Positions 4,087 through 6,043 of a stretch of 64,000 nt of DNA are shown piece by piece. The DNA comes from Escherichia coli (GTDB lineage Bacteria > Pseudomonadota > Gammaproteobacteria > Enterobacterales > Enterobacteriaceae). Within the stretch, counting starts at the first letter, position 1; every line of letters begins with the position of its first letter. The translations under genes were made by a program, and so were the position numbers. The DNA lies in NCBI RefSeq assembly GCF_050920415.1, contig NZ_CP169309.1. One strand, 5' to 3'. The notes beneath the pieces are model-generated. The model was not told where the DNA came from, did no database searches, and saw nothing but the letters and a program-made list of their open reading frames with translations.

Positions 4087-6043
4087 ATGGGTATTTTCTC
4101 CATTGCTAACCAACATATTCGCTTTGCGGTAAAACTGGCGACCGCCATTGTACTGGCGCTGTTTGTTGGCTTTCACTTCCAGCTGGAAACGCCACGCTGG
4201 GCGGTACTGACAGCGGCGATTGTTGCCGCCGGTCCGGCCTTTGCTGCGGGAGGTGAACCGTATTCTGGCGCTATTCGCTATCGTGGCTTTTTGCGCATCA
4301 TCGGCACATTTATTGGCTGTATTGCCGATCATTGCGATGATCCGCGCACCATTATTGATGATTCTGGTGTGCTGTATTTGGGCCGGTTTTTGTACCTGGA
4401 TTTCCTCGCTGGTACGAATAGAAAACTCCTATGCGTGGGGGTTGGCTGGTTATACCGCGCTGATCATTGTGATTACCATTCAGCCGGAACCGCTTCTTAC
4501 GCCGCAGTTTGCCGTCGAACGTTGTAGCGAGATCGTTATCGGTATTGCGTGTGCAATTATGGCGGATTTGCTCTTTTCTCCGCGATCGATCAAACAAGAA
4601 GTGGATCGAGAGCTGGAAAGTTTGCTGGTCGCGCAATATCAATTAATGCAACTCTGTATCAAGCATGGCGATGGTGAAGTTGTCGATAAAGCCTGGGGCG
4701 ATCTTGTGCGACGCACCACGGCGTTACAAGGTATGCGCAGCAACCTGAATATGGAATCTTCCCGCTGGGCGCGGGCCAATCGACGTTTAAAAGCGATCAA
4801 TACGCTATCGCTGACGCTGATTACCCAATCCTGCGAAACTTATCTTATTCAGAATACGCGCCCGGAATTGATCACTGATACTTTCCGCGAATTTTTTGAC
4901 ACGCCGGTAGAAACCGCGCAGGACGTCCACAAGCAGCTCAAACGCCTGCGGAGAGTTATCGCCTGGACCGGGGAACGGGAAACGCCTGTCACCATTTATA
5001 GCTGGGTCGCGGCGGCAACGCGTTATCAGCTTCTCAAGCGCGGCGTTATCAGTAACACAAAAATCAACGCTACTGAAGAAGAGATCCTGCAAGGCGAACC
5101 GGAAGTCAAAGTAGAGTCAGCCGAACGTCATCATGCGATGGTTAACTTCTGGCGAACCACACTTTCCTGCATTCTGGGGACGCTTTTCTGGCTGTGGACG
5201 GGCTGGACTTCCGGCAGTGGTGCAATGGTGATGATTGCGGTAGTGACGTCACTGGCAATGCGTTTGCCGAATCCACGCATGGTGGCGATCGACTTTATTT
5301 ATGGGACGCTGGCGGCGCTGCCGTTAGGGCTACTCTACTTTTTGGTGATTATCCCTAATACCCAACAAAGCATGTTATTGCTGTGTATTAGCCTGGCAGT
5401 GCTGGGATTCTTCCTTGGCATTGAAGTACAGAAACGGCGATTGGGCTCGATGGGGGCGCTGGCCAGCACCATAAACATTATCGTGCTGGATAACCCGATG
5501 ACTTTCCATTTCAGTCAGTTTCTCGACAGCGCATTAGGGCAAATCGTCGGCTGTGTGCTCGCGTTCACCGTTATTTTGCTGGTGCGGGATAAATCGCGCG
5601 ACAGGACTGGACGTGTACTGCTTAATCAGTTTGTTTCTGCCGCTGTTTCCGCGATGACTACCAATGTGGCACGTCGTAAAGAGAATCACCTCCCGGCACT
5701 TTATCAGCAGCTGTTTTTGCTGATGAATAAGTTCCCAGGGGATTTGCCGAAATTTCGCCTGGCACTGACGATGATTATCGCGCACCAGCGCCTGCGTGAT
5801 GCGCCGATCCCGGTTAACGAGGATTTATCGGCGTTTCACCGGCAAATGCGCCGCACAGCAGACCATGTGATATCTGCCCGTAGCGATGATAAACGTCGTC
5901 GGTACTTTGGCCAGTTGCTGGAAGAACTGGAAATCTACCAGGAAAAGCTACGCATCTGGCAAGCGCCACCGCAGGTGACGGAACCAGTACATCGGCTTAC
6001 GGGTATGCTCCATAAGTATCAACATGCGTTGACCGATAGTTAA
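4087..6043 (+). pseudogene. aaeB: aaeB (p-hydroxybenzoic acid efflux pump subunit) with internal frameshift
   Basis: Reading frame starting at ATG 4087 runs to 4527; the conserved downstream protein continues in the +1 frame (ORF 4220-6043). Frames switch near 4327 (...IGCIA | [10 protein letters not shown]...). Span 4087-6043 is 1957 nt, not a multiple of 3. Confidence 0.8.

Follow-up and report, generated by a model that had tools for sequence, protein, structure and literature searches.

An 11-bp gap breaks the reading frame of aaeB in one Escherichia coli sequence and very probably reflects a genuine, strain-specific deletion

Results

aaeB lacks 11 bp and is a probable frameshift pseudogene

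In the Escherichia coli chromosome sequence analyzed here, a stretch of 64,000 bases (hereafter, the window), the efflux gene aaeB is short by 11 bp and can no longer be translated in a single frame. We consider it very probable that this gap is a genuine deletion, private to the strain, which turned aaeB into a pseudogene.

The ORFs of the window follow the order tldD, aaeR, aaeX, aaeA, aaeB, yhcO, yhcN, argR, mdh ... dacB, and both the ORFs and their order agree with the annotation of several E. coli genomes. The arrangement of aaeR, aaeX-aaeA-aaeB, and yhcO is the same in MFDS1022581, N96, 24A16CRGN010, and K-12. By this synteny, and by 100% identity to annotated aaeB outside of the gap, the broken gene at 4087-6043 is aaeB (Table 1). 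The coordinates of aaeX were carried over from the annotation of MFDS1022581 (3075-3278 of locus L002, minus 137). As the aaeXAB operon ends with aaeB, a polar effect on other genes is not expected; yhcO, which lies downstream of a terminator-like hairpin, is a separate gene.

Table 1. Features of the aae locus in the window
Feature	Position	Strand	Basis
aaeR, LysR-type activator of aaeXAB, intact	1826..2755	-	309-aa ORF; aaeR at the equivalent MFDS1022581 position; 0 differences
aaeX, small membrane protein, first gene of the operon, intact	2938..3141	+	MFDS1022581 annotation; 0 differences
aaeA, membrane-fusion subunit, intact, with lineage allele P81L	3149..4081	+	310-aa ORF
aaeB 5' part, native frame: codons 1-80 and base 1 of codon 81	4087..4327	+	MGIFS...IGCIA; 241 bases identical to intact aaeB
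Deletion junction, 11 bp GACTGGTGATC absent	4327..4328	+	Pairwise alignment; prefix/suffix comparison
Out-of-frame tail: 66 non-native residues up to the TAG at 4525-4527	4328..4527	+	ORF list, translation
aaeB 3' part, codons 85-655 and stop, +1 frame relative to the start codon	4328..6043	+	1716 bases identical to intact aaeB
Terminator-like hairpin 3' of aaeB, CCGACGC ... GCGTCGG, then T run	6046..6068	+	Read in the sequence

All RefSeq complete E. coli genomes were searched by megablast with positions 4087-6043; 5,425 of the 5,426 matched, at 95-99% identity, and aaeB was 1968 nt long in every match listed. In the window, the gene measures 1957 nt, or 3x652+1, as recognized in a sequence-only reading of this DNA, which had pointed out that 4087-6043 is not a multiple of 3. 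Alignment with the best match, MFDS1022581 (NZ_CP169399.1), locates the difference: the 11 bp GACTGGTGATC are absent between 4327 and 4328, while the 241 bases before and the 1716 bases after the gap are all identical. At 3x3+2 bases, the loss has the form that the same reading had proposed, a short deletion of 3n+2 bp relative to an intact allele. The ends of the deletion cannot slide, so its placement is unique and it has no flanking direct repeat or microhomology. The k-mer across the junction is TGTATTGCCGATCATTGCG, and the matching k-mer of the intact allele is TGTATTGCCGGACTGGTGATCATCATTGCG. In the intact allele, a 7-bp inverted repeat (GATCATC / GATGATC) adjoins the right end, with a stability that is unremarkable (z = -1.7). 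Microhomology and this hairpin were both considered as the mutational mechanism and rejected, the former being absent and the latter weak and not significant.

Neither the gene nor the 64-kb window contains another gap; the length of this one is not a multiple of 3, and it is uncompensated. Together with the premature stop codon described below, these features give aaeB in this sequence the form of a frameshift pseudogene. All that the sequence-only reading stated about the locus was borne out.

Predicted effect on AaeB and the pump

Translation from the ATG at 4087 yields an ORF of 146 codons that ends at a TAG at 4525-4527, in line with the earlier statement that this frame is closed by 4527. 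The deletion removes two bases of Gly81 and the whole of Leu82, Val83, and Ile84. The frame is lost after Ala80, and the encoded product consists of 80 native and 66 unrelated residues. The remaining 572 codons lie in the +1 frame at 4328-6043 and run through the normal carboxyl terminus (...TDS and stop codon), which confirms that the rest of AaeB is encoded in that frame from about 4328 onward.

Intact AaeB comprises 655 aa and matches the Pfam FUSC family over residues 11-651. Its most hydrophobic stretch covers residues 66-115 and includes the deleted residues, so the frame breaks inside a membrane segment. The 146-aa fragment lacks approximately 88% of this FUSC-family transporter. Taking model positions 2-659 within a single polypeptide as the whole FUSC domain, no one polypeptide predicted from the window covers it, and the gene is best classed as a predicted pseudogene of the FUSC family rather than a functional member. 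A search by sequence for a relative of AaeB in the PDB returned none.

AaeAB is a p-hydroxybenzoate efflux pump and has been proposed to act as a “metabolic relief valve” (Van Dyk et al. 2004, as cited in PMC11481567); p-hydroxybenzoate efflux by AaeAB is also listed in PMC8277102. An aaeB deletion mutant is viable in the Keio collection (PMC11481567). By frameshifting the gene inside a membrane segment, the 11-bp deletion would replace the transporter with the 146-aa fragment and leave the membrane-fusion protein AaeA without its inner-membrane partner. Judging from the genotype, export of p-hydroxybenzoate and related aromatic carboxylates by AaeAB would be lost. The strain would then be more sensitive to added p-hydroxybenzoate, and would hold back more of its endogenous 4-hydroxybenzoate.

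The deletion allele was found in this sequence only

All 5,425 matching complete E. coli genomes carry the 11 additional bases at this site, and the deletion junction was not found in any of them; the best identity to the junction was 90.1% (100/111). Of these 5,425 genomes, 5,424 cover the gene over its full length, and its first third had the intact length in 60 of 60 rows sampled evenly down the ranking. No exact match to the junction was found among GTDB species representatives or in JGI metagenome contigs. At the protein level, sixteen exact look-ups were made for the allele elsewhere. Among approximately 15 billion proteins, neither the 146-aa fragment nor any of the six tested candidate C-terminal fragments spanning the junction was present.

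The closest relatives carry an intact gene. STEC_7v (AEXD01000019) and GCA_015518365 show 0 mismatches to the window over 8,070 bases except for the 11-bp gap, and both encode a 655-aa AaeB. Another close relative, the Logan contig DRR168434_98, is 100% identical to window positions 39466-46119 and carries the rare variant ElbB F95V. This contig should be long enough to span aaeB, and its gene is probably intact, since no 146-aa fragment is on record in the protein collection; this hints that even very close clone-mates of the strain have kept the gene. An identity of at least 98.8% over window positions 34001-59000 was reached by only approximately 18 of the 5,426 complete genomes, the bulk lying at approximately 97.4%. 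On these identities, the strain is placed in a minority lineage of E. coli, with STEC_7v as a close relative. As the nearest relatives are intact, the deletion would be recent, and neutral or weakly selected.

Other differences in the window

Over its full length, the window is 99.97% identical to MFDS1022581; 7 substitutions and a single gap separate the two, and none of the substitutions creates a stop codon. With N96, 24A16CRGN010, and K-12 as outgroups to set polarity, four substitutions were derived on the side of the window: aaeA P81L, gltB A455V, arcB H222Y, and elbB F95V. All of these are missense and none is synonymous, although they number only four.

The aaeA variant results from a T at 3390, which changes codon 81 from CCG to CTG. 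It alters the proline of a DQPRYQ motif; K-12 and the other genomes in the comparison have proline here. The AaeA P81L protein occurs in at least 24 contigs, with an intact 655-aa AaeB beside it in all places shown. P81L is evidently tolerated, as a whole sub-lineage with intact aaeB inherits it. We therefore rejected the idea of two hits in one operon, in which P81L and the aaeB deletion would together mark decay or selection: P81L is a lineage allele found beside intact aaeB.

ArcB H222Y (window position 40563) is likewise a lineage allele, present in 41 blocks of the protein collection. ElbB F95V (42748) is rare, shared by only 6 contigs, among them Logan DRR168434 and a chromosome of 5.31 Mb. 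The fourth variant, A455V in the glutamate synthase large subunit gene gltB (36837, minus strand), is a private missense change, derived relative to four genomes; the GltB A455V protein was absent from the public protein collection with both candidate starts tried. Outside aaeB, this looks to be the single private change in the window. An excess of private missense changes, as a sign of mutagenesis or relaxed selection, was also considered and set aside, as the numbers are too small and the arcB and elbB alleles are shared. A Shigella origin, to which the pseudogene had pointed, was discarded as well: the window holds no repeats of at least 200 bp and no IS-like elements, and it is 7 SNPs away from an E. 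coli food isolate.

Elsewhere in the window, between yhcG and gltD, a block of five genes (24636-32076, minus strand) encodes a SWIM zinc-finger protein, a DUF5691 protein, an ATP-binding protein, a DUF5682 protein, and a VWA-domain protein. The block is shared with MFDS1022581 and N96. The position is occupied by gltF and the yhcADEF fimbrial genes in K-12 and is empty in 24A16CRGN010. None of the five proteins gave a match in PADLOC (0/5).

Discussion

A real deletion or an artefact of assembly

An error of sequencing or assembly, which the sequence-only reading had named beside a genuine pseudogene, is the rival reading of the gap itself: the aaeB of the strain would be truly intact, with 11 bases lost in assembly or polishing. 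Several observations speak for it or against a real deletion. The deletion allele is unique to this sequence and absent from every collection searched, no second independent assembly carries it, and the gene is intact in relatives that show no other difference over 8 kb, and probably in DRR168434_98. Nor does any mutational signature account for the end points. In addition, a GATC (Dam site) is present in both the deleted segment and the new junction, and Dam sites are prone to base-calling errors in nanopore data. However, the usual errors of sequencing platforms affect 1-2 bases at homopolymers or methylated motifs, rather than removing 11 bp cleanly from unique sequence, and the sequence flanking the gap is perfect on both sides. 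Moreover, it is the sole indel relative to the closest genome in 64,000 bases, all homopolymers included. As the 64-kb alignment to MFDS1022581 shows no other gap, the assembly is not indel-prone. The lack of any other indel, together with the loss of 11 bp of unique sequence that is atypical of the platforms, favours a real mutation, and we regard an artefact as unlikely, though not negligibly so. Most likely, a non-essential efflux gene has here become an ordinary frameshift pseudogene, through a mutation that is real and private to one sequence.

Other losses of aaeB and the question of selection

Disrupted copies of aaeB were also found elsewhere: in the Logan assemblies ERR13989417, SRR5605996, SRR24825657, and SRR30896151, in GCA_977064965.1, and in several gut metagenome scaffolds. 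In these, the gene breaks in its first third, so that 143-201 aa remain as an N-terminal fragment and the C-terminal part is called as an ORF of its own. The lesions (loci L014 and L018-L024) include premature stops without an indel and the gain or loss of a T at a T4 run near nucleotide 502; further lesions are an insertion of GCAA at 562 and deletions of 16 bp at 530 and 28 bp at 404. These alleles sit in different lineages (95.5-98.1% identity), and the 11-bp junction was found in none of those aligned. Two C-terminal fragments, of 494 and 465 aa, are on record, and the contigs shown for them carry other lesions or start inside the gene. Disruption of aaeB thus appears to recur sporadically in E. 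coli, although some cases may be assembly errors.

A further question is whether knockout of aaeB was selected, for example because retained 4-hydroxybenzoate protects against 4-hydroxybenzoate antimetabolites, or because the cost of the pump is saved. This concerns the cause of fixation and is compatible with a genuine private deletion rather than an alternative to it. 3,6-Dihydroxy-1,2-benzisoxazole, a mimic of 4-hydroxybenzoate, inhibited an aaeB deletion mutant of MG1655 at 16-64 µg/mL, up from 2 µg/mL, and overexpression of aaeB lowered its MIC (PMC11481567). Also consistent with selection are the independent disruptions in several unrelated assemblies, and the presence of aaeB among the genes mutated during the evolution of E. 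coli within patients (PMC12196164). Against this, the present allele is confined to the terminal branch of one genome, loss of aaeB is not fixed in any clade in the data, and the independent disruptions are few, some of them perhaps assembly errors (an N run in L018; changes of one base at the T4 run).

A selective benefit is conceivable from the literature, while a single allele on a terminal branch gives no evidence of selection here, and we find adaptive loss improbable. The more specific proposal that the deletion is both real and selected, with retained 4-hydroxybenzoate protecting ubiquinone synthesis from mimics like 3,6-dihydroxy-1,2-benzisoxazole, seems to us very improbable. If it were true, recurrent independent knockouts of aaeB in wild E. 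coli would represent a route to resistance and not decay.

Implications for annotation

The knockout of aaeB in a single strain is an already known kind of event. On the reading that we prefer, a real but ordinary private deletion, aaeB should be annotated as a pseudogene in this genome and the strain is predicted to be without p-hydroxybenzoate efflux, with little significance beyond the annotation itself. It would add one more case to the sporadic losses of this non-essential “metabolic relief valve” among natural E. coli. Where the quality of an assembly is in doubt, the aaeB locus is worth checking in the reads.

Comparison with known systems

Two overlapping frames, the downstream one in +1, are also the arrangement of prfB, the gene for release factor 2, which is expressed by programmed +1 frameshifting. 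The gene aaeB could still be expressed, through programmed or spontaneous +1 frameshifting or through re-initiation to give an active, N-terminally truncated AaeB. To restore the frame, ribosomes would have to shift by +1 (or -2) somewhere in 4211-4525. The +1 frame is indeed open from 4211, after a TGA at 4208, so that a +1 slip anywhere before 4525 would join both parts, and a T5 run at 4288 permits re-pairing of tRNA-Phe in the +1 frame. For re-initiation, in-frame ATGs are available at 4337, 4559, and 4646. However, the site is not conserved, as AaeB is encoded in a single frame in all 5,425 other genomes. Positions 4208-4527 were scanned for motifs, and the overlap contained no known +1 motif (of the CUU UGA type or others), only two T5 runs, one A4 run, and one G5 run. 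If ribosomes slipped perfectly at the junction, 4 residues of a membrane helix would still be missing, and a slip at 4288 would exchange the 16 native residues 69-84 for 12 wrong ones.

No Shine-Dalgarno sequence was found for the in-frame starts near the junction, that at 4337 included, and the 3' part has no credible start of its own. Products from 4559 or 4646 would be missing 160-190 residues at the N terminus, several hydrophobic segments among them. Continued expression of a working AaeB by any of these routes is therefore exceedingly improbable. The sequence-only reading had not expected programmed frameshifting either, a judgment upheld by the lack of a recoding motif and by the fact that no other genome needs a frameshift here.

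The likeness to prfB thus ends at the layout of the frames. Unlike prfB, aaeB in this sequence lacks a conserved shift site, a slippery CUU UGA, and a stimulatory internal Shine-Dalgarno sequence, and the aaeB orthologues are all encoded in a single frame. The closest functional counterpart is aaeB of E. coli K-12 (yhcP, b3240), which encodes the inner-membrane subunit of AaeAB (FUSC, PF04632) at the equivalent locus and in the same gene order. The intact allele of MFDS1022581 and STEC_7v is 97.7% identical to that of K-12, and 100% identical to the window outside of the gap. Unlike an intact aaeB of the K-12 type, the gene in the window is short by 11 bp after codon 80, which makes the 655-aa product impossible.
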